From the IMG/VR virus record IMGVR_UViG_3300021426_000093, positions 2,572 to 66,571 of that record: a stretch of 64,000 nucleotides of DNA; one strand, 5' to 3'. Source of the stretch: a virus (lineage: Duplodnaviria > Caudoviricetes). Positions within the stretch are counted from its first letter, which is position 1; each line of letters opens with the position of its first letter. The position numbers and the translations under genes were made by a program. This document shows, in pieces, positions 52,419 to 63,964 of this stretch. The notes beneath the pieces are model-generated. The model ran no database searches. It saw nothing but the letters and a program-made list of their open reading frames with translations, and was not told where the DNA came from.

Positions 52419-52853
52419 ATGAATAAACGTGATTATAGATTCTTTGAACTGGCTCGTCAACAAGCTTTGCAAAGTCAATTTGATAGATTCCATCTTGGGT
52501 GTGTTATTACTTATAAAGGTCGAGTAATTGGACGCGGTTCTAATTCAGATAAGACAGATCCCTTGCAAAAACGATATAATAAAGAACGTAAATTTAATAG
52601 AAATGGAAATCAACCTATAAAACACAGCGTTCATGCAGAAATTGCTGCGCTTAAATCAATCCCTTATCCAATCCAAGAATCAATAGATTGGAGTAAAGTA
52701 AAAGTTTATATTTATAGAACTGCTATTGGGAAAAAATTGCATATGGGACTTGCTCGTCCATGTGCAGGATGTATGAAGGCTTTGCGAGATAGGGGTATCC
52801 AAAGAATATATTATACTACTAGTGATGGGTTCGCCGAAGAAAGGATTTTTTAA
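52419..52853 (+). CDS. cytidine/deoxycytidylate deaminase-family protein
   Basis: Zinc motifs HAE and PCAGC; preceded by its own promoter. Confidence 0.85.
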   Translation: MNKRDYRFFELARQQALQSQFDRFHLGCVITYKGRVIGRGSNSDKTDPLQKRYNKERKFNRNGNQPIKHSVHAEIAALKSIPYPIQESIDWSKVKVYIYRTAIGKKLHMGLARPCAGCMKALRDRGIQRIYYTTSDGFAEERIF

Positions 52854-52909: not shown

Positions 52910-53240
52910 AAGAAAGACCTAAACCGTATTGCTTATTTTAAGCTAAGAAGCCAAAAGGTGATGGTTTTGCCCTGGTCAGGCTGCAAATATAGGTAATGCC
53001 ACTTATATTCTAAGATAATTACTATTAGGAGAGCGCAGTACGGAACTTAGTCGAAGAGTGATCGGCACATGGCATTGTGTGGAAAAACGAGGGCGCTTTA
53101 CCGCATGCTTCGGACTAAGGAAGTTAGAATGAGAGAGGTTCTTCAGAATCAAAACCTTATTACTCCGCAGAGTAGACCAGCAGCTTATTGGTCGTTAATA
53201 ATAAAAGCCCTCTTCACTACTGCGGCTCTGGTGATGTTAA
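52910..53240 (+). ncRNA. candidate structured RNA, family unassigned
   Basis: Promoter TAGACA(52872)-17-TATAAT(52895). GC-elevated, with long-range pairings CCGTATTGC/GCAGTACGG, CTTAGTC/GACTAAG and CCGCAG/CTGCGG. Confidence 0.6.
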
Positions 53241-53322
53241 GTGCGATTGTCCTAAGGTTTTACTGGACAGTCGCACTATTTTTATGATATAATATATCTA
53301 CAAAGGAGAGAAAGGATATATT

Positions 53323-53583
53323 ATGTTGAAGTCTATTCTTGTTGAAGGATGGGAATGCTGGGATGGTTCTGAGGGGAACCACCAATATAAGCATATTCTT
53401 GTGGCATCTCATGAAGAAGCACACGCCGCAGGTCTTGAATTTGCTTTTACTCTTCTTGACCCTTATATGAATGAAATTAAGCATTACGCCGAGTACATGG
53501 CCGCAAATGGTTATGATTATGATGAAGTTATTCATAATACTATGCTTGAATGTGCTCATTATGAATTGTGGGAGAAATGCTAA
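53323..53583 (+). CDS. hypothetical protein
   Basis: Promoter and SD upstream. Confidence 0.75.
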   Translation: MLKSILVEGWECWDGSEGNHQYKHILVASHEEAHAAGLEFAFTLLDPYMNEIKHYAEYMAANGYDYDEVIHNTMLECAHYELWEKC

Positions 53584-54014
53584 TGAGACAGCGTAATATA
53601 TACCTTGAAAAAATTAATCCTGATATTCACAGTTATGGTATTAATTGGAAACATATGGGTTTTCATCCTATACGGTGGGTGCAGGATTTTATACAACGCC
53701 GCGAATGCGGATATGATTATAGAGTAACTTATAATCTTGACTCTTGGATGATTGAACAACTTTATAGTTGGCTTAATATGTATCTTGAAGCTAGTTATAA
53801 TACTATTGATCTTGAGTATCATAAATTTAATATTGATGGTATGGAATTAACAGAATTAGAAGTTATTGTTTATATTATAGATAGTTTTGAACAGTGGCTT
53901 GTTTGTATCGATGATATTGATAAATATGCAACTGATGAAGAAATTGCGGCTCAAGAGCAAGTGAAGAAAGCGTTTGCGGCTTTAGGGCAAATAATTTTTT
54001 GTCTTTGGTGGTAA
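53583..54014 (+). CDS. hypothetical phage protein
   Basis: TAATG coupling; Trp-rich, all TGG. Confidence 0.75.
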   Translation: MRQRNIYLEKINPDIHSYGINWKHMGFHPIRWVQDFIQRRECGYDYRVTYNLDSWMIEQLYSWLNMYLEASYNTIDLEYHKFNIDGMELTELEVIVYIIDSFEQWLVCIDDIDKYATDEEIAAQEQVKKAFAALGQIIFCLWW

Positions 54015-54064
54015 AAATTTATCAAAGAATAATAAATTTTTTAAGAAGAAAGGAGTATTTAATT

Positions 54065-54812
54065 ATGGAGATAATTAATGATATTACAAATAATTGGTTT
54101 GTATCAGATCTCCATCTTTGAATAACTTAATCACTACCACATCAATAAACAAGGTGAACCAAGAGGTGTCACTTTATTTGAACGTACTCAATTTGGTAAT
54201 GATATTGCCGCACACGATAAGTATATTATACAACAAATACGACAATGGGCAGAGCGTCATCAAGGACATACATTGTGGTGCCTAGGAGATTTTGGGAACA
54301 TTTCATATTTATGGTTAATTAAAGAGCTAAGATATAGTTATAATATTAAAACTTGTTTTGTGTATGGTAATCATGACAAAGTCTCAGATTTACCTTTGTT
54401 TCAAGAAGCATTTGATAAAGTTTATACAATGCCTGTTTATATTCATCCTAGAATTATAGTTTCTCATGAACCTGTTTGGCCTTGTCCTAGTGGAACTTTA
54501 AATGTTCACGGTCATCTTCATTGTGAACGTCTTGATAGTAAGCAACATTTTAATGTAAATATTCATATGCTTAATTATCAACTTGCTTCTTCCAAGAGAG
54601 TAATGAATTTACTTGGTAAACTTGAAAAGCCAAGTTTTAAATTTCTTGAAGAGCCTTATGTGCGGCACATGCTTATTACTCAAAAGAAGGAAGATGCAGT
54701 ATATGATCGCAAAACTGGTAAGATAGATTATGAAGCAAGTGTGCGGCTTTATAATAAAAATCATCCAGACCATCCTAAACAACCAATTCCTAAATATACT
54801 CTCTCTTGGTAA
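54065..54812 (+). CDS. metallophosphoesterase interrupted by a 10-nt insertion (bypass candidate or pseudogene)
   Basis: The 5' part MEIINDITNNWFVSDLHL is in one frame; NHYHIN...LGDFG...GNHD...SHEP...HGHLH is in the +1 frame. Removing 10 nt restores the DLHLNH motif. Confidence 0.75.
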
Positions 54813-54944
54813 TATTACTTATTCGTAATAAAATTTATAATATTACATATATGTAAAATAATATTCTATGCGGCTGTGGTAAGATTTTTCTTGCCGGCCG
54901 CATTTTATTTATGTTATAATATATTTATAAGAGAAAGGAGAAGT

Positions 54945-55283
54945 ATGGAAAAGAATAATTATGTAATTTGTGGTTATTGTGGAGTTGATGTTGTTCCAGA
55001 TTATGAATATGAAATTATTTATGATGTTACTCATAATGAAGCTGTAGATAAAGCTAAAAAGCTCTCTTTACGGCAAAGTATCGACAGATATGCAGATTTA
55101 ATTGTTCAAGAGACTGAGAAAGAATTGCCACTTGATCCTGCAGATGTTTATGAAGCAGTCATTGATGATTTTATTCGATTTGAAGTATGGAAGATTGATT
55201 CTGATATTTCAAAAGAAGCATGGGATGAATTTGATTTTGGCCCTGATACTTTTTGTAATCGTTATTGTAAACGAGTAGCATAA
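54945..55283 (+). CDS. hypothetical protein
   Basis: Promoter and SD AAGGAG precede MEKNNY. Confidence 0.7.
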   Translation: MEKNNYVICGYCGVDVVPDYEYEIIYDVTHNEAVDKAKKLSLRQSIDRYADLIVQETEKELPLDPADVYEAVIDDFIRFEVWKIDSDISKEAWDEFDFGPDTFCNRYCKRVA

Positions 55284-55485: not shown

Positions 55486-56412
55486 ATGGTTAACTGTTTT
55501 AAGCCTTATCTCCACGTTGAGAGATTGGGAAAAACAGAAGTTGATAATATCCTTTGCGGCACTGTAAGACTTACAGCAAAACTTGATGGTACTAATGCAT
55601 CTGTATGGGCAGACGAAAATGGTCATATGCACTATGGTAGTCGTAAGCGTGAAATTTCTGTTGAAGATGATAATGCTGGCTTTGCTGCTTGGATGAAGTC
55701 TGACAATGAGGAAGCTGTTCTCCTTATTCGTTTTTGCCAAGCTAATCCTAGTATGATTGTTTATGGTGAATGGGGCGTGTCTAAAGTAGGTGCAATTAAG
55801 AAATACATCAAAGAAGCTGCGAATAAACTTTGGATTTTTGATATTTATTCCCGTGAAGAAGAACGTTATCTTACTTGGAATGAGCTTGAAGCCGCACTTA
55901 TTATGTATAATTTAATTGATTATCGTGTTAAGCTTTTGGCTACTCTTACTAATCCAACACTTGACGATATTATTAAGGTTGCGGATGAAAATACTTTTCT
56001 TCTTGAAGGAACTAACACGCTTGGAGAAGGCGTTGTAATTCGTAGAGATAACTATACTAATTGCTATGGACGTTATGCTGTGGCAAAATATGTACGAGAA
56101 GATTTTAGACCAAATACTCCAAAAGTAAAGAGAATTGCTCAAGCTGGTGAGGTTGAACAAGATTTTATTAATCGTTATCTAACTCAGTCTGAACTTGAAA
56201 AGGCTAAGGCTAAAACTGCCTTAGCTTGCGGCGAAGAGTATGTTCCTGGTAATGGCAAGTTTATTGGTATGTTTCTTAATTTACTTTGGAAGGATGCTCT
56301 TGAAGAGAATATTGTAGATTTTTGTAAGCGTGCCAAGAATCCTCAAATTGATTTTGCTGCACTTAATGGTCTAATTAAAGCAGAAGGCCGCAAATTCCTA
56401 GGATTGGTATAA
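55486..56412 (+). CDS. RNA ligase (Rnl2-like nucleotidyltransferase)
   Basis: Motif I KLDGTN, YGEW, FDI, EGVVIR, K.V.E.F. Confidence 0.85.
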   Translation: MVNCFKPYLHVERLGKTEVDNILCGTVRLTAKLDGTNASVWADENGHMHYGSRKREISVEDDNAGFAAWMKSDNEEAVLLIRFCQANPSMIVYGEWGVSKVGAIKKYIKEAANKLWIFDIYSREEERYLTWNELEAALIMYNLIDYRVKLLATLTNPTLDDIIKVADENTFLLEGTNTLGEGVVIRRDNYTNCYGRYAVAKYVREDFRPNTPKVKRIAQAGEVEQDFINRYLTQSELEKAKAKTALACGEEYVPGNGKFIGMFLNLLWKDALEENIVDFCKRAKNPQIDFAALNGLIKAEGRKFLGLV

Positions 56413-56413
56413 T

Positions 56414-56692
56414 ATGAAGAAAATTTTACTTTCTCTTTTGGGAATTATATTGTGTTTTAGTATATGTGGTTGTACTAGTTCAAAGTTAGAAGCACACACA
56501 TCCAACGGAGAATCTTTGGAGCATGAAAGATTTCGTATAGTAGAAGGAGATTATAGTTCTCAAGCAATTTTAGTTAATACTGAAACTGGCGTTGAGTATT
56601 TATGGATTAGTGAGTATTCTAGAGCAGGATTAACTGTCATTGTTGATCATGATGGTAAACCATTAATCGCTCCCAATTTTAAGGATTACTAA
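56414..56692 (+). CDS. small lipoprotein (DUF6440-like by recollection)
   Basis: Signal peptide with lipobox-like ICGC; ILVNTETGVEYLW...GLTVIVDHDGKP. Confidence 0.65.
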   Translation: MKKILLSLLGIILCFSICGCTSSKLEAHTSNGESLEHERFRIVEGDYSSQAILVNTETGVEYLWISEYSRAGLTVIVDHDGKPLIAPNFKDY

Positions 56693-56880
56693 TGGGAATA
56701 TATAAAGTAGTATATGATGATGATCTTTGTTATCATTATGTATCATGGTTTTTTGATTTAGAAACAGCCAAGAATTGGTGTGAACTAAATAAGCATAAGT
56801 GGATGCGATGGCATATATATGATAAGAAAGGACATGAAAAACATGGTGGATGTAATGGACCGTCCTACTTTGGAGCATAA
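56692..56880 (+). CDS. hypothetical protein
   Basis: Translationally coupled ORF. Confidence 0.55.
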   Translation: MGIYKVVYDDDLCYHYVSWFFDLETAKNWCELNKHKWMRWHIYDKKGHEKHGGCNGPSYFGA

Positions 56881-57151
56881 AAATATTCCTGTGTATGCAG
56901 AAAATCTTTATAAATGGACACCAGAACCTACTGTATTAAAACAAGATATTTGTTGGGATATTCCAATTTTAGAAGAATTAGATTGTCCTTACTGTAAAGG
57001 TGAAACTGGTGATTGTATCATAGATGATTCATCTATCATCGCTTATGTATCAGGGAATCATTTGTGGGTTGAATTATTTGAACCGCATAATCTAGATATT
57101 GCTTTTTCAAATATAAATTATTGCCCTATGTGTGGCAAACAGTTAAAATAA
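56819..57151 (+). CDS. zinc-ribbon protein (start uncertain)
   Basis: CPYC and CPMC pairs. Confidence 0.6.
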   Translation: MIRKDMKNMVDVMDRPTLEHKNIPVYAENLYKWTPEPTVLKQDICWDIPILEELDCPYCKGETGDCIIDDSSIIAYVSGNHLWVELFEPHNLDIAFSNINYCPMCGKQLK

Positions 57152-57233
57152 TTATTGCTCTTATAATAAGGTAGCTCTTGTCAGCTACCTTATTTTTATG
57201 TTATAATATTTTTATAAGGAAAGGGGAGATAGT

Positions 57234-57404
57234 ATGTCCAAGAAGAAAAATCATAGGTCTATTACTATTGACCCTAAAATTATTTGGAATGCACACAAGC
57301 CGCGCTATAATGCTTATCAAATTGGGTATGGCGCTCATAGCAAAAATAAGTATAGTCGTAAAAAAAAATATAAAACTGATTGGAGAAATTATGACCGAGA
57401 TTAA
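57234..57404 (+). CDS. small basic protein (56 aa)
   Basis: Promoter and SD GGGGAG; MSKKKNHRS...GYGAHSKNKYSRKKKYKTDW. Confidence 0.7.
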   Translation: MSKKKNHRSITIDPKIIWNAHKPRYNAYQIGYGAHSKNKYSRKKKYKTDWRNYDRD

Positions 57405-57747
57405 TCTTCTTGAAGAGACTGAGCGCGCTTTGGCTTGTCATAATAAGACTTGGGATGACATTTCTTGGATTGGCGGACGCGATTTTTATATCAGTATTGA
57501 GCAATTTAAGGAAGCCGCAAAAGACACTAATTATGACTGTGGTTATGGTAGTGAAGAAGTTGCAGTAGATTTAGTTGTTTGTTTTAATGATGGATCATGG
57601 TTATCTCGTGCTGAGTATGATGGTTCAGAATGGTGGAGATATAATTCTTATCCACAGAAACCACAGTATTATCGTCTAGGGAAAATTAAATTAGCTGACC
57701 CTGGTGGTTATGATGCTTGGAGTGGTTTAAAGAAACTTAATAAATAA
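57391..57747 (+). CDS. conserved phage hypothetical protein
   Basis: MTEINLLEET...YDCGYGSEEV...WLSRAEYDGSEWW. Confidence 0.75.
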   Translation: MTEINLLEETERALACHNKTWDDISWIGGRDFYISIEQFKEAAKDTNYDCGYGSEEVAVDLVVCFNDGSWLSRAEYDGSEWWRYNSYPQKPQYYRLGKIKLADPGGYDAWSGLKKLNK

Positions 57748-57756
57748 GGAGTAATT

Positions 57757-59040
57757 ATGTCTTGGAATCCTGTACTTAATATGTTTATTGAAGTGAAAAA
57801 TGAATTTATTAAGGAGTGCGGTAAGGATGCTTTGTGGCAGTATGGCCGCAAGGATTCTTTTACGAATTGTCTTTCCTATTGGGTATGGACTCTTGGAAAT
57901 CATGGTCATCCTAAGCGCCATATTTATAGTAAAATGATTGAACCTTTACTTCTTAATGAAAGTATGGGTATGTTGCTTATTAAGTATAATGATCTTGGTA
58001 TTGATTGGGATGCTTATGATGGTTTTTATCGTGAATGTAGATCCGTTGTGATCGATGTACTTAATGATTGTTTGGTTCTTGCTCCTTTCCGTAAATTTTT
58101 TAATATTAATGAACTTGAGGAGACTCAGCTTCATGTTATTCAAGAGAAGATAGATAATGGTAATTCTGTAGAAATTACCGATAAGATTGATGGAAGTATG
58201 TGCGATGCTCGTTGGTATCGCAAGGATCTTGTTATGTCTGGTTCTCAGGCTCTTGATATTAATAAATCTTATCGTCTAGAAAATTATTATCATTGGATGC
58301 ATCAGCATGAAAATGCAGTACAGATGCTCAAAGATTATGATAATTTTACTTTCATTTTTGAAGGAGTATTCCCTGATGATGTTCATATAGTACAATATAA
58401 TGAACAAATGTTCGGTCTACATCTCCTTGGAATGCGGCGAGTAGAAGATGGTGCGGAACTGCCTTATAAGGATGTTGTAGAAATTGCAGAAAAATATGGT
58501 GTGCCGCATGTTAAAATTTTTGATATGACTTTTGAAGAAGCTTATCAGGACGCTCTTAATGATGGCCGCAAGGCTAATGAGGGTGAGGGATATGTTATTG
58601 ATATAGGTGGTCAGAAGTATAAGCTAAAGTATAATGATTATGTTATGCTTCATCATGCTCTTTGTAAGATGGTTTCTCCCAATGCTATAATTGCGGCTAT
58701 TCGTGAAGGCCATTGGGATGATTTCTATTCAAAGATTCCTGTCGCATACCAGCCGCAAGCTAAGGCTATCGCAGATGATGTATTTACTTATCTTCATCTT
58801 TTGGACGAACGAGTGTGCTATTGGTGGGATAAAGTTAGTGAATATTGTGATTATAATCCTAATCCTGACCGTAAATTTTTTATGATTGGCGTGAATGAAA
58901 TTGTACCTAAGCGCTATCAGGGAGCAGTTCGTTCTAAATATCTAATGGAGAATATAGATTATCTTCGTGGTGTTAAGTATGGAGATATTCAAGACTATAT
59001 TGAGTTGATGCAGGCTTTAACTTTAAATGTTAAAGCTTGA
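57757..59040 (+). CDS. RNA ligase (T4 Rnl1-like); ends in TGA
   Basis: RECRSVV, PFRKFFNINE, KIDGS, FIFE, EGYV, KLK. Confidence 0.88.
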   Translation: MSWNPVLNMFIEVKNEFIKECGKDALWQYGRKDSFTNCLSYWVWTLGNHGHPKRHIYSKMIEPLLLNESMGMLLIKYNDLGIDWDAYDGFYRECRSVVIDVLNDCLVLAPFRKFFNINELEETQLHVIQEKIDNGNSVEITDKIDGSMCDARWYRKDLVMSGSQALDINKSYRLENYYHWMHQHENAVQMLKDYDNFTFIFEGVFPDDVHIVQYNEQMFGLHLLGMRRVEDGAELPYKDVVEIAEKYGVPHVKIFDMTFEEAYQDALNDGRKANEGEGYVIDIGGQKYKLKYNDYVMLHHALCKMVSPNAIIAAIREGHWDDFYSKIPVAYQPQAKAIADDVFTYLHLLDERVCYWWDKVSEYCDYNPNPDRKFFMIGVNEIVPKRYQGAVRSKYLMENIDYLRGVKYGDIQDYIELMQALTLNVKA

Positions 59041-59109
59041 GAATGAAATTCTTTATTGACACCTGCTTGTTAAATATGTTATAATATTTTTATAAGAAAG
59101 GAGAGATAT

Positions 59110-59604
59110 ATGACTCAGTGTGATGAAACTATTCGTCGTCAGTTGCGTAAACCTACTGTATATATAATGTGCGGCGTGCCTGGTTCAGGAAAAACATATT
59201 TTTGTAAGAACGTGCTGATGGATCACCCTTGGCGTAGTCGGGTCTATATCTCTTCTGACGATATTCGTGAAGAGCTTTGTGGTGATGCCAGTAATCAATC
59301 TCTTAATGGTGTCGTTTTTGATATTTTTTATGCCCGTGCTCGTGAAGCTATTGAAAATGGAAATGATGTAATTCTTGACGCAACGCATTTGACTAAGAAG
59401 TCTCGCCGCAAATGTCGTAATCATTTTAAGGATTTGGATTGTAAGTTTATTGCAGTTCAGATGAATACGCCAGTATTAGATGCTATTTATCGTAATAAGA
59501 AACGTGATAGAGTTGTACCTGCTGATGCAATGAGCCGCATGATTAAGGTATATCAGCCTGTTGAGGATAGTGAAGGTTTTGATTATGTCTGGAGAGTAGA
59601 TTAA
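59110..59604 (+). CDS. polynucleotide kinase-like P-loop kinase (AAA_33)
   Basis: CGVPGSGKT, SSDDIREE, VILDATH, RNKKRDRVVP. Confidence 0.85.
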   Translation: MTQCDETIRRQLRKPTVYIMCGVPGSGKTYFCKNVLMDHPWRSRVYISSDDIREELCGDASNQSLNGVVFDIFYARAREAIENGNDVILDATHLTKKSRRKCRNHFKDLDCKFIAVQMNTPVLDAIYRNKKRDRVVPADAMSRMIKVYQPVEDSEGFDYVWRVD

Positions 59605-60182
59605 TGATTTATTTAAGTTCAGATTTACATTTTGGACATGATAGAGGCTTCATTTATGAGCCGCGAGGGTTTTCTAGTGTCCAAGAGAATGATGAAATAA
59701 TTATTGAGAGATTTAATAGTATCGTGCGGTCTAATGATGATCTTTATCTCTTGGGCGATCAAATGCTTAGTGATAATGAACATGGTTTAGATTGTTTGCG
59801 GCAACTTAATGGTAATCTTCATATTTTATGGGGAAACCATGATACAAATGTGCGCAAAAAACTTTATAAAACTCTTCCTAATGTTGTAGAGATTCTTGGA
59901 TATGCAGGAATGCTTAAATATGGTAAATGGCATTTCCTTTTGTCGCATTATTCAACTTTAACCGCGAATTATGATGATTATGATAAACCTTTAAAAGAAC
60001 GGATATGGAATCTTCATGGCCATACACACTCCAATAATCGTTTTGAATTTATGGATAAAGGATGGCAATCTTATAATGTAGCTGTTGATGCTCATTATTG
60101 CTATCCTGTCAAAATTGATAATGTTATAGAAGATATTAAATGGTATTATATTCAACGTAAATATGAAGAGTATGAGTTTTAA
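59604..60182 (+). CDS. metallophosphoesterase
   Basis: SDLHFGH, LGD, GNHD, SHY, HGHTH; coupled to the kinase gene. Confidence 0.88.
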   Translation: MIYLSSDLHFGHDRGFIYEPRGFSSVQENDEIIIERFNSIVRSNDDLYLLGDQMLSDNEHGLDCLRQLNGNLHILWGNHDTNVRKKLYKTLPNVVEILGYAGMLKYGKWHFLLSHYSTLTANYDDYDKPLKERIWNLHGHTHSNNRFEFMDKGWQSYNVAVDAHYCYPVKIDNVIEDIKWYYIQRKYEEYEF

Positions 60183-60435: not shown

Positions 60436-61025
60436 AAACAGAATAGTTGAAGATTTAGGTGCAACTCAGTGCAGAGCGGTGTCAACGTGCTGAGAATTCT
60501 TCTCAATGAGTTGATGCGGCAAGGGATACTTTGCGGCTAGGCTTTAAAATGAATCGTGAGATTTATTTTAGAAGGTAGAAACTACCAACGAAATGAAGAA
60601 TGTGCTAAGTCTGTTTGCTTAGAAAACGTACTTGTAGATTGTCGTCTCCGTAATAGACGCCCCAGTGGGGAAGAATCCAGAACACTTATTAACAGGTGGT
60701 GCTGAATAAGAGAAAGCTGGAAATACCAATAAGGAGATTGAGCTGTTGACTCTCTGGTGACAGGGGGAATAAGACAAGGGCGAGGTTCGAGTAGCGCAAA
60801 GCAGCTCCTTTTATCATTATAATGAAATTAGGAGAATATAATATGCTGAATGATGCGTGAAAGTTGCGGGTAAGCAATCCTGCTACGGAAATGGCCTTTA
60901 CGGCTGGGGCAAGAAGCATTAGGGTCGCTCCCTTTTGTTCAGCCTTGTCTCCCGTGTGACAGAAGATTCAGCAAATAGAGGTGGTACGGCGAAGGTCGGC
61001 ATGTATATCTTCAACTATTCTGTTT
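60436..61025 (+). ncRNA. ROOL-like giant ornate RNA (~590 nt)
   Basis: Perfect 19-bp terminal helix AAACAGAATAGTTGAAGAT/ATCTTCAACTATTCTGTTT. The size matches ROOL (~580 nt). Segments GAGTAGCGCAAAG, GTGAAAGTTGCGGGTAAGCAATCC and GGGTCGCTCCCT resemble ROOL as I recall it. Next to phage tRNAs. Confidence 0.65.
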
Positions 61026-61875: not shown

Positions 61876-61951
61876 GCTGGTGTGGCGCAATAGGTAGCGC
61901 ACTTCACTTGTAATGAAGATGTTGCGGGTTCGATTCCTGTCACCAGCTCCA
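61876..61951 (+). tRNA. tRNA-Thr(TGT)
   Basis: Cloverleaf, anticodon arm CTTCA-CTTGTAA-TGAAG, encoded CCA. Confidence 0.92.
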
Positions 61952-61953
61952 GT

Positions 61954-62028
61954 CGGGCGTTAGTGAAGCGGTTATCACAATGGTCTGTCTAACCATTATC
62001 ACGGGTTCGATTCCCGTACGCCTGGCCA
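61954..62028 (+). tRNA. tRNA-Asp(GTC)
   Basis: ATGGT-CTGTCTA-ACCAT, G73, CCA. Confidence 0.9.
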
Positions 62029-62033
62029 CAAAA

Positions 62034-62123
62034 TGCGGGGTAGTTATATGGATTAAAACATTAACTGAAACTGGTGCATAAAGACAGTTAAAGAATCGGG
62101 TTTGAGTCCCGACCCTGTAACCA
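62034..62123 (+). tRNA. atypical tRNA with expanded anticodon loop (possibly Phe-GAA plus insertion)
   Basis: Acceptor TGCGGGG/CCCTGTA+ACCA, D arm and T arm TCGGG-TTTGAGT-CCCGA intact. The anticodon arm has a 7-bp stem and a 17-nt loop. Confidence 0.6.
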
Positions 62124-62126
62124 TAT

Positions 62127-62203
62127 GCGATCATGGTGTTTAACGGCTAGCATGTCAGCCTTCCAAGCTGCGGGTGAGGGTTCGAATCCCTCTGGTCGCT
62201 CCA
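62127..62203 (+). tRNA. tRNA-Gly(TCC)
   Basis: CAGC-CTTCCAA-GCTG, GGTTCGAATCC, CCA. Confidence 0.9.
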
Positions 62204-62209
62204 TAATAT

Positions 62210-62287
62210 CGGATAGTGGGCCAGTTTGGTTAAGCCACATGATTTGGGATCATGTTATCGGGAGTTCAAATCTCTCCTATCCGACCA
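62210..62287 (+). tRNA. tRNA-Pro(TGG)
   Basis: CATGA-TTTGGGA-TCATG, CCA. Confidence 0.9.
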
Positions 62288-62385
62288 TGTTTATAATAGT
62301 ATATGCTATTTAATTAAAATTTAAAATAGCCTTTAATAGCCTAAGAGAAGGCGCTTGAATTTTTTCAAGAGAATGAAGGCTGTTT

Positions 62386-62460
62386 GCGGGAGAAGCTCAA
62401 CGGTAGAGCACTCGACTCATAATCGATTGGAAGCAGGTTCGATTCCTGTCTCCCGCACCA
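62386..62460 (+). tRNA. tRNA with CAT anticodon (Met or Ile2)
   Basis: TCGA-CTCATAA-TCGA, CCA. Confidence 0.88.
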
Positions 62461-62484
62461 GTAAAATTGAAGAAACATTAATTT

Positions 62485-62560
62485 GGCGCATTAGATTAAC
62501 GGATAGATCACTACGCTTTCACCGTAGAGATGAGGAGTTCAACTCTCCCATGCGCTACCA
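62485..62560 (+). tRNA. tRNA-Glu(TTC)
   Basis: CTACG-CTTTCAC-CGTAG, CCA. Confidence 0.9.
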
Positions 62561-62563
62561 AAT

Positions 62564-62648
62564 GCGGGTGTGGCGAAATTGGCAAACGCGACGGACTCAA
62601 AATCCGTTGCCGCAAGGCTTGTGGGTTCGAGTCCCACCACCCGTACCA
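62564..62648 (+). tRNA. tRNA-Leu(CAA)
   Basis: ACGGA-CTCAAAA-TCCGT, long variable arm, CCA. Confidence 0.92.
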
Positions 62649-62757
62649 TTAAAAATTTTTTTATAAAGTAAATAAAAATTTAAATTATTTTTAATTAATT
62701 TTTATTTGCTTTATATACAGCATCGTCTTGTTCGTGTCTTAGGAGGAATTAAACCGA

Positions 62758-63717
62758 GTGAGTAAAAACAAGACTCTTATAGGATATATTGTTGCATTAT
62801 CTTTAGTCTGTGGTCTTATGATGATTCCAGGCGTAGCTTATAGTGATAGTTTAACAGCAGCGTCTTCTATATCTCAAAGTGAAAAAATACATCAGATTAA
62901 AATAGAAAAACAATTAAAAATTATAAAAGAGAAGAATAAAATTTCAAAGGATACTTGAAAGTATTTAAAAGTTTGGAAAACTTATCTTTCTAAAAAACAA
63001 AAGCAACAATTAAAAAATAATAAAAATAAAGCAATGAATAGTTTTAGTTTAACTAAAATTAAAAATTATCAAAAAAAGAATTTAACTATTATAGAAAAAG
63101 CCAAAAAGGTAAAAAAGAATAGGGACAATGTTAAAAAGTATATAAAAAAAATATTGTCTAAAGGTTTCTTAAATGATAAAGAAAAAAACACTTTACAAAA
63201 ATATTTAAAGAAAATAAAAAAGAGTTATAGTGTTAAAAAAATTAAAAAATATAAACAAAAAGCGAAAAAAATACTTATAGAAGCAAAAGAAAGAGCTATA
63301 GAAGAAGAAAGATATATCCCAGGAATGGATACTTCTTGGTGGAGTGATGCCGCCATTAAATATGTAAAAGAATGGGGTAGAAAAAACAATGCCTTTTTAA
63401 GTGGTACTCCAATGGAAGGACTTGGTTATTGGATTGCTGCTGGTGCTTGGGATTATAATGTAGATCCCGCAGTATTATCTTCTATTGCTTATATTGAATC
63501 TGGATGCGGAGTAATTCCATATGGTTCACCCTATAACGCTTATGGTTGAATCTGGAATCCACCTTATATGAGTAGTTGGGAAGATGGAATTTATAAATGG
63601 TATGGATTCTTTGGTCAATATTTTGGTGGAGATATTCCTGTTTCTTCAATGCATGGTTATGGTGGATATGGAGTAGAAACTCTTTATCCATATCTTGAAC
63701 AAATTAGAAATGCCTAA
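62758..63717 (+). CDS. secreted lysozyme-like/glucosaminidase cell-wall hydrolase, 319 aa in code 4
   Basis: SD AGGAGG, GTG start, signal peptide, Lys-rich linker, then FLSGTPMEGLG...AAGAWDYNVDP...IAYIESGCG...NAYG[TGA]; two in-frame TGA. Confidence 0.72.
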
Positions 63718-63889
63718 TAATAAAATAAAAATATATACACTGTAAATGAAAGTTTGAATACTTTATTAAAAGTATTTTAAGATCAGATGATGCTGTTATA
63801 CTCTTAATTTTTATTATTAGGAATAATTTTATGATAAAATTTTAGTATATTATGAAAACTAGAAACTTCTATATAATTCATAATGATAT

Positions 63890-63964
63890 TTCCTCTTGGT
63901 GTAATTGGTAGCACAAGGGTTTTTGGTGCCCTTAGTTTAGGTTCGAGTCCTGAAGAGGAAGCCA
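63890..63964 (+). tRNA. tRNA-Gln(TTG)
   Basis: AGGGT-TTTTGGT-GCCCT, GGTTCGAGTCC, CCA. Confidence 0.9.

Follow-up and report, generated by a model that had tools for sequence, protein, structure and literature searches.

A candidate CUU-to-CUU ribosome hop over a UGA codon in a phage metallophosphoesterase gene

A metallophosphoesterase gene carried by a phage that reads TGA as tryptophan in its late genes is broken, directly after its first catalytic motif, by exactly 10 extra nucleotides that begin with a TGA in the incoming frame. The best-supported reading of this gene, to which we assign a probability of about 60%, is that a translating ribosome would hop from the CUU codon preceding the stop to an identical CUU codon 10 nt downstream. 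This reading is favored because gaps of similar architecture recur at motif I of related phage phosphoesterases and because the gene itself lacks signs of decay. A short, stop-led, hairpin-backed gap in a phosphoesterase appears to be new to the literature as a candidate bypass site, the present case being one of 10 nt that starts with UGA and occurs in a phage with a reassigned codon; a full-text literature search returned no paper joining translational bypassing with phosphoesterases. The gene lies in the stretch of 64,000 nt that was analysed (hereafter the window), which makes up most of a 66.6-kb IMG/VR phage fragment with an estimated completeness of ∼50% and a GC content of 33%.

The open reading frame begins at ATG 54065 and runs on the plus strand for 18 codons (54065-54118; MEIINDITNNWFVSDLHL), which encode metal-binding motif I (D-L-H) and end GAT CTC CAT CTT, the last of these (54116-54118) being the putative take-off codon. 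TGA (54119-54121) follows immediately, after which the same frame continues ATA ACT TAA (stop at 54128-54130). The +1 frame contains TAA at 54123-54125 and is then open from CTT (54126-54128) AAT CAC to TAA 54810-54812, a span of 228 codons. The putative untranslated gap, TGAATAA (54119-54125, plus strand), and the landing codon CTT (54126-54128, plus strand) together account for the 10 bases that are extra relative to all homologues. Because the take-off and landing codons are identical, both can be read by one peptidyl-tRNA. The second coding piece (54129-54812, plus strand; NHYHINKQGEPRG... to TAA) carries the motifs GDFG, GNHD, SHEP, and HGHLH; its tryptophan codons are all TGG, and in-frame TGA is absent. 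Inspection of the reading frames at 54065-54128 bears out the CTT-TGA-ATAA-CTT layout of the original prediction, together with its TAA just before the landing codon in the downstream frame and its intact downstream catalytic motifs, all of which fall on conserved columns.

Simpler decoding events do not restore the product. Reading TGA as tryptophan, which had been predicted not to rescue the gene, indeed adds only W-I-T before TAA is reached, and a simple +1 slip (CUU to UUU) runs into GAA TAA, so the tRNA would have to travel 10 nt. A 10-nt displacement alone yields ...SDLHL-NHYHINKQGEPRG..., which aligns without gaps to every homologue. Matched codons beside a stop are frequent by chance, with 387 loose matches on the plus strand in a sequence-only scan of the window, and what carries weight is that the gene, compared with its homologues, has exactly 10 nt inserted at a catalytic motif. 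Searched for further hop sites, the window gave hundreds of chance matches by sequence alone and none by homology. The inserted 10-mer, examined as a possible repeated element, is not repeated.

The joined product is a calcineurin-like metallophosphoesterase (PHROG 547, E 1e-19) in which the motifs D-x-H, GD, GNH(D/E), H, and GH-x-H follow one another in order. The match to Pfam Metallophos_2 (E 3e-4) is below the curated cut-off, and the nearest solved relative is Aq_1665 (PDB 1xm7, E 7.5e-8 with the family profile). When the closest DNA relatives were aligned, a clean 10-column gap was evident immediately 3′ of the histidine codon. Across 26 homologous proteins and ∼35 fetched DNA loci, the motif S-D-x-H-[FYL]-[NG]-H is uninterrupted, and the joined product fits these sequences gap-free. 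An intact paralogue is encoded at 59604-60182 on the plus strand, coupled to a polynucleotide kinase gene (59110-59604) whose stop overlaps its start. The original prediction had matched the hop junction to this copy, which does start MIYLSSDLHFGH; the kinship is distant only (BLASTP E 0.14, same PHROG 547). The paralogue could provide partial redundancy. Since the phosphoesterase is an accessory enzyme with a paralogue, the phage would tolerate its loss.

Within the subfamily to which the window gene belongs, the insertion was found in none of 26 proteins and ∼35 DNA loci. Being private, it lacks conservation, the usual proof, for the window instance; conservation of a gap in diverged relatives was observed only in a sister clade, for the pairs L124/L131 and L084/L168 described below. 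Exact and degenerate DNA patterns of the window gap, searched against IMG/VR, gave no match or chance matches only. Among phage isolates no DNA match was found, and the only protein match (25%) was in Pseudomonas phage Lu11; bacterial genomes yielded distant relatives only (31%) and no clue to the host. Among the proteins, the 224-aa start call P0010 equals the full-length protein P0043 except for the first 18 residues and is uninformative at the protein level.

Other features at the 5′ end are also private to the window genome. An untranslated spacer (54015-54064, plus strand) with its own Shine-Dalgarno sequence, AAAGGAG (54049-54055), precedes the gene; 47 nt of it are private, and in relatives the gene start abuts or overlaps the upstream stop (TGGTGGTAAGTATG). 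Two additional N-terminal codons (ATG GAG) are likewise private. Comparison of 54126-54440 with protein P0003 shows the gene to be a mosaic: residues ∼30-115 are nearly identical to P0003, and similarity to other lineages (P0008/L005 and P0005-P0007) is seen in the 30 residues before them and in the C-terminal half. This pattern suggests that a recombination patch of ∼150 nt may have brought in the gap together with the spacer and the new start.

The private spacer and the private extra codons supply hairpin pairing to the site. The predicted mRNA hairpin (54053-54128, plus strand) has a 5′ arm at 54053-54072, a 3′ arm at 54108-54128, and a small inner hairpin at 54085-54103. Its 5′ arm comprises the end of the Shine-Dalgarno sequence and AUGGAGAU, and its 3′ arm consists of AUCUCCAU directly before the take-off codon, followed by the gap and landing codon. 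In the predicted fold, AUGGAGAU (54065-54072) pairs with AUCUCCAU (54108-54115), abutting the take-off codon, and the gap and landing codon have GAGUAUUUAA (54053-54062) as their pairing partner. Folded over 84 nt, the region has a free energy of -19.7 kcal/mol (z -3.34), a value equalled by 2 of 200 shuffles. The inserted 10 bases add little to it, given that 3.5-7% of random inserts match it, and the helix ending at the take-off codon is thus the core feature. For the last 60 nt before take-off, the window gene gave -12.2 kcal/mol (z -2.7 to -2.9) compared with -6.1 ± 2.6 kcal/mol (z 0.07 ± 1.06) for the same 60 nt of 17 intact subfamily relatives. An origin of the insert by template switching (quasi-palindrome) was considered and rejected: the insert is complementary to the 5′ arm or to 54015-54028 only when G-U pairs, a bulge, or an indel is allowed, and it is therefore not an exact DNA copy.

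A degenerate pattern search of IMG/VR for D-x-H-L-stop-L-G-H, for which ∼1.5 chance matches are expected, yielded one genuine case, L061, which reads M-K-Y-F-F-T-S-D-Y-H-L-TAA-L-G-H... and then continues as an intact phosphoesterase. Its clade is homologous to the window family (hhalign 98.3%) at 18% identity. Relatives of L061 were fetched in two rounds, 32 loci and then the best 80 of 493. Among these best 80 of 493, 59 have D-x-H in frame directly upstream and 8 are broken at motif I, so that with L061 there are gap genes at motif I in 9 of the 81 screened. All 80 genes of this wide scan are open downstream of the motif, no break being found elsewhere in the gene, and every break is therefore in one spot.

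The designs of these gaps differ. A 6-nt gap is present in L061 (CTT TAA CTT) and in L119 (CTT TAA CTA), and a 7-nt gap in L135 (TTC TGA A TTT), L084 (CAT TAG TTAT), and L168 (CAT TAG GTAC). L075 (CAT CTT TAA C) has the form of a +1, RF2-type shift, L124 and L131 (CAC TTT C GGN) that of a +1 shift before rare CGG, and L132 a 31-nt gap whose stem-loop carries UAG. The triggers are accordingly UAA, UAG, UGA, or rare CGG. In L124 and L131 (both at 400-406, CAC TTT C GGN CAT), tRNA-Phe can slip from UUU to UUC before the rare CGG. In L132 (373-406; IMGVR_UViG_3300033149_001657), the 31-nt displacement lies between two CAT codons just past the G-H of motif I and contains TAG and a perfect stem-loop of ∼10 bp, like a miniature of the gene 60 take-off hairpin. 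Gaps of 6, 7, or 1 nt, each preceded by a strong hairpin (-20 to -29 kcal/mol over 60 nt) around the Shine-Dalgarno sequence and start codon, map to L063:1495-1503, L119:395-403, L135:394-403, L120:385-397, L168:391-403, and L104:397-406. No homing endonuclease was found within 1.5 kb of L063, L075, and L084.

On average, the 60 nt ending at the take-off codon fold strongly in the gap genes. For the 8 that were folded, the mean was -21.6 kcal/mol (z -5.3), compared with -6.1 kcal/mol (z +0.3) for 51 intact genes (Mann-Whitney p ∼5e-6). A strong hairpin of -20 to -29 kcal/mol (z -5 to -8.5) is predicted in six of the eight; it encloses the Shine-Dalgarno sequence and the start codon, and 0-2 nt separate its end from that of the take-off codon. 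Weaker folds were obtained for the two +1-shift genes, L124 (-11.8 kcal/mol, z ∼0) and L131 (-13.6 kcal/mol, z ∼-0.9). These two genes have a common shift site at 76% amino acid identity, with pN of 0.14 against a pS of 0.79 at which synonymous sites are saturated, and by these rates the gap in this diverged pair is kept under purifying selection. L084 and L168 have a common 7-nt design at 48% identity. Random pseudogenization cannot produce the pattern observed in the sister clade. Nor is a mutation hot spot driven by the hairpin a likely cause, given that intact genes have no strong hairpin and that the opposite arm does not provide a template for the inserts.

The window gene resembles this class in several respects. 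Both belong to the PHROG 547/Aq_1665-like family, and both have a stop-led gap, a re-pairing codon, and a predicted hairpin around the start region that extends as far as the take-off codon. The window gap occupies the same column, that of the residue after the D-x-H histidine, as those of L061, L119, L135, L075, L124, and L131. They differ in that the window gap is 10 nt long and lies in a different clade, whereas gaps of the class measure 1, 6, 7, and 31 nt and mostly have stronger hairpins (mean -21.6 kcal/mol, as against -12.2 kcal/mol in the window). The motif-I gap class in phage phosphoesterases is unpublished, and its role in recoding is suggested by sequence and predicted folds. The interpretation of the window site as a hop, as first proposed, is consistent with the exact insertion, the architecture of the gap class, and the absence of decay; it is weakened by the restriction of the insertion to the window.

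Selection on the gene was assessed by codon comparisons. Over alignment columns 160-240, the C-terminal third, pairwise dN/dS was 0.03-0.15. On the window branch, private codon changes number 23 synonymous to 15 non-synonymous, the same count in intact relatives being 11:12 for L005 and 23:46 for L008. No relaxed selection was seen on the branch, nor any other stop or shift in the 228 codons of this 33% GC gene. Two-way tblastn against a collinear relative, G001 (140,682 bp, 65-92% nt identity), identified the phosphoesterase gene as the only true frame break among ∼98 shared ORFs. With its motifs intact, the 23:15 ratio, and this sole frame break, the window gene does not look like a decaying gene to judge from these sequence comparisons. 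The original prediction had asked whether relatives keep the insertion under purifying selection, and had held that an insertion private to the genome with decay downstream would tell against it. Relatives do not keep the insertion, which is private among those fetched; the gene nevertheless shows neither relaxed selection nor downstream decay.

The strongest competing explanation, less likely than the hop but a serious rival, is that a recent private 10-nt insertion inactivated an accessory gene, leaving an 18-residue peptide as its only product and a merely coincidental likeness to a hop site. That the insertion is common to no relative fits such a knockout, as does the presence of an intact paralogue of the same PHROG 5 kb away, beside a kinase. 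An in-frame stop following an insertion is likely enough in AT-rich DNA (roughly 7%), microhomology-flanked insertions are common, and the window hairpin is only moderately unusual. A chance lesion would nonetheless have had to fall on the exact column of nine sister-clade gaps of recoding type, in a family in which 0 of 80 wide-scan genes are broken elsewhere. It would also have had to leave the window branch without relaxed selection and without a second lesion in 228 codons of 33% GC DNA, and to coincide with a hairpin-building 5′ untranslated region and N-terminal extension that are likewise private to the window genome.

An assembly or sequencing artefact, with the real gene uninterrupted, is very improbable. 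An insertion of 10 nt outside any homopolymer is an atypical error, and two other contigs, with Logan and ENA as sources, gave the same truncated 179-aa ORF call. As no other gene is frame-broken relative to G001, the assembly is evidently not error-prone.

Two further possibilities carry still less weight. A shifty stop under the late code, in which UGA is read as tryptophan and a +1 shift at ACU UAA (54125-54130) leads onto CUU to give ...DLHLWIT-NHYH... with three extra residues, is hardly credible: late genes of the phage do read TGA as tryptophan and a relative encodes a tRNA with anticodon UCA, yet CUU cannot be re-paired by tRNA-Thr, an insertion at that position is tolerated nowhere in the family, and the other tryptophan codons of the gene are all TGG. 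Equally hard to credit is independent synthesis of a truncated protein from TTG 54273, an ORF that gene callers do report (P0004) and that has a weak AAGGA 6 nt upstream, since the product would be without motif I, with its Asp and His metal ligands, and without 49 conserved residues on which purifying selection still acts.

Under the favored CUU-to-CUU reading, the ribosome would have to hop for any full-length metallophosphoesterase to be made. Once 18 codons had been read, peptidyl-tRNA-Leu would be positioned on CUU (54116) with UGA in the A site. During slow reading of UGA, the tRNA would detach, the mRNA would slide by 10 nt, and the tRNA would re-pair with CUU (54126), whereupon decoding would restart at AAU CAC. 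The translating ribosome would open the hairpin, which has the end of the Shine-Dalgarno sequence and the AUG in its 5′ arm and a 3′ arm that stops at the take-off codon. Refolding behind the ribosome would favor forward sliding; this is the function attributed to the 5′ stem-loop in gene 60 of phage T4. We infer the occurrence of hopping, its efficiency, and the role of the hairpin. Termination by RF2 and +1 slippage onto UUU compete with the hop and may leave little product. With a UGA suppressor active, UGA would be read as tryptophan and translation would end at the UAA three codons on.

The closest precedent is the large terminase gene of the Streptomyces phage Hau3, for which a +10 bypass has been proposed (Smith et al. 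2013; Antonov et al. 2023, PMC10732093) and which substantiates the earlier remark that short hops had been proposed in Streptomyces phages. That gene contains two 10-nt inserts, each with a slow first codon, flanks that are adjacent in relatives, and structure nearby, and its junction peptide was detected by mass spectrometry in E. coli (PMC10732093). Like the Hau3 gene, the window gene has an exact 10-nt frame-disrupting insert led by a slow codon, with flanks that are adjacent in insert-free relatives; in both there is a stop under standard decoding and a nearby RNA structure as the proposed stimulator, and in both the gap occurs in few genomes. The trigger in Hau3 is the rare sense codon UUA, read by the bldA tRNA, whereas that in the window is the stop codon UGA. 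Moreover, the Hau3 terminase is essential, which forces the conclusion, and a junction peptide was detected for it; the window gene is accessory and known from its sequence.

The 50-nt bypass of T4 gene 60 lies within a cassette of the homing endonuclease MobA (Huang 1988; Bonocora 2011; Manning & Atkins, bioRxiv 10.1101/2022.08.31.505936). Work on gene 60 also supplied the idea that refolding of a 5′ stem-loop behind the ribosome drives forward movement. The survey of gene 60 covers topoisomerase genes only. As in gene 60, the take-off codon of the window gene matches its landing codon and is followed at once by a stop, and a 5′ stem-loop, in the window a predicted one, lies upstream. Gene 60 also has a new start and a diverged copy of N-terminal codons before its gap, which the private 5′ segment of the window gene resembles. 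The two differ in the length displaced (10 nt as against 50 nt), in the nascent chain, which is of 18 residues in the window, and in the lack of an adjacent homing endonuclease. The untranslated gap of 7 nt (10-nt displacement) leaves no room for a take-off stem-loop, and with so short a nascent chain a peptide signal of the gene 60 type is unlikely. No homing endonuclease or remnant was found beside the window gene, the neighboring genes at 53550-54014 and 54876-55283 being without a nuclease domain. Both neighbors are conserved in the gap-free relative G001, and the private spacer alone is present at the site.

The P-site and A-site codons also recall a different class of event. Synthesis of RF2 from prfB reportedly depends on a +1 frameshift programmed at CUU UGA C, and hops of tRNA-Leu over a stop between matched leucine codons of the CUU type are reported to have been first seen in synthetic E. 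coli constructs (Weiss et al. 1987; O'Connor et al. 1989). Common to these cases and the window are CUU in the P site, UGA in the A site, and a tRNA-Leu that re-pairs while the stop is slow. Unlike in prfB, a +1 slip is unproductive in the window gene, and there is no internal Shine-Dalgarno sequence 3 nt upstream.

The codon at the gap is one that the phage itself reassigns. TGA is read as tryptophan in a 40-kb late block, where ORFs of 2584, 2952, and 1692 aa appear under code 4 only. Genes at 50.8-60.2 kb use TGG for tryptophan, and gene stops are TAA or TAG with one doubtful TGA exception (1 of 18 genes). The relative G001 encodes, on the complement strand at C1:18170-18266 (locus L043), a 97-nt tRNA with anticodon UCA, labelled SeC by ARAGORN, which is likely the UGA suppressor of the phage group; the half-genome to which the window belongs has no tRNA with this anticodon. 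An ORF at 53069-53596, ∼470 nt upstream of the hop gene, has three in-frame TGA and four TGG codons and is conserved over 174 aa in G001. As it lies among TGA-avoiding genes, TGA-dependent and TGA-free genes are interleaved.

It is a tentative and rather doubtful suggestion that UGA at the take-off site makes the hop a sensor of the genetic-code switch, confining the enzyme to a time window set by recoding. While suppressor tRNA was scarce, above all with RF2 disabled, UGA would be slow, the ribosome would hop, and phosphoesterase would be made; once UGA was read fast as tryptophan, the UAA three codons later would end synthesis. Such a sensor would parallel the proposed gating of the Hau3 terminase by rare UUA and the bldA tRNA. 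The tie between hopping at UGA and the code switch that the original prediction put forward is logically possible, but the gaps of the sister clade are led by any of the three stops or by a rare codon.

To our knowledge, good evidence for natural bypassing exists in very few places, namely T4 gene 60 and related genes, the mitochondrion of one yeast, and the Hau3 proposal. If the CUU-to-CUU hop is real, short hairpin-assisted stop hops would be a recurrent, selectable means by which phages interrupt genes and yet express them, and genes of this type would systematically be annotated by gene callers as truncated or broken. As the gap stop in the window is a codon that the phage reassigns, the interplay of suppressor tRNA, RF2, and ribosome hopping would be directly testable.

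The gene block around the phosphoesterase gene has further features. A dCMP deaminase homologue (PHROG 174) is encoded upstream in the same block, at 52419-52853. Downstream, a module resembling RNA repair extends over 55486-60182 and includes an RNA ligase (55486-56412), a DUF6440 protein (56414-56692), and a T4 RnlA-like ligase (57757-59040). The polynucleotide kinase and second phosphoesterase belong to the same neighborhood, as do a full-length ROOL RNA (60441-61017; Rfam RF03087, 346 bits) and, directly downstream of it, a tRNA cluster (61876-63964).
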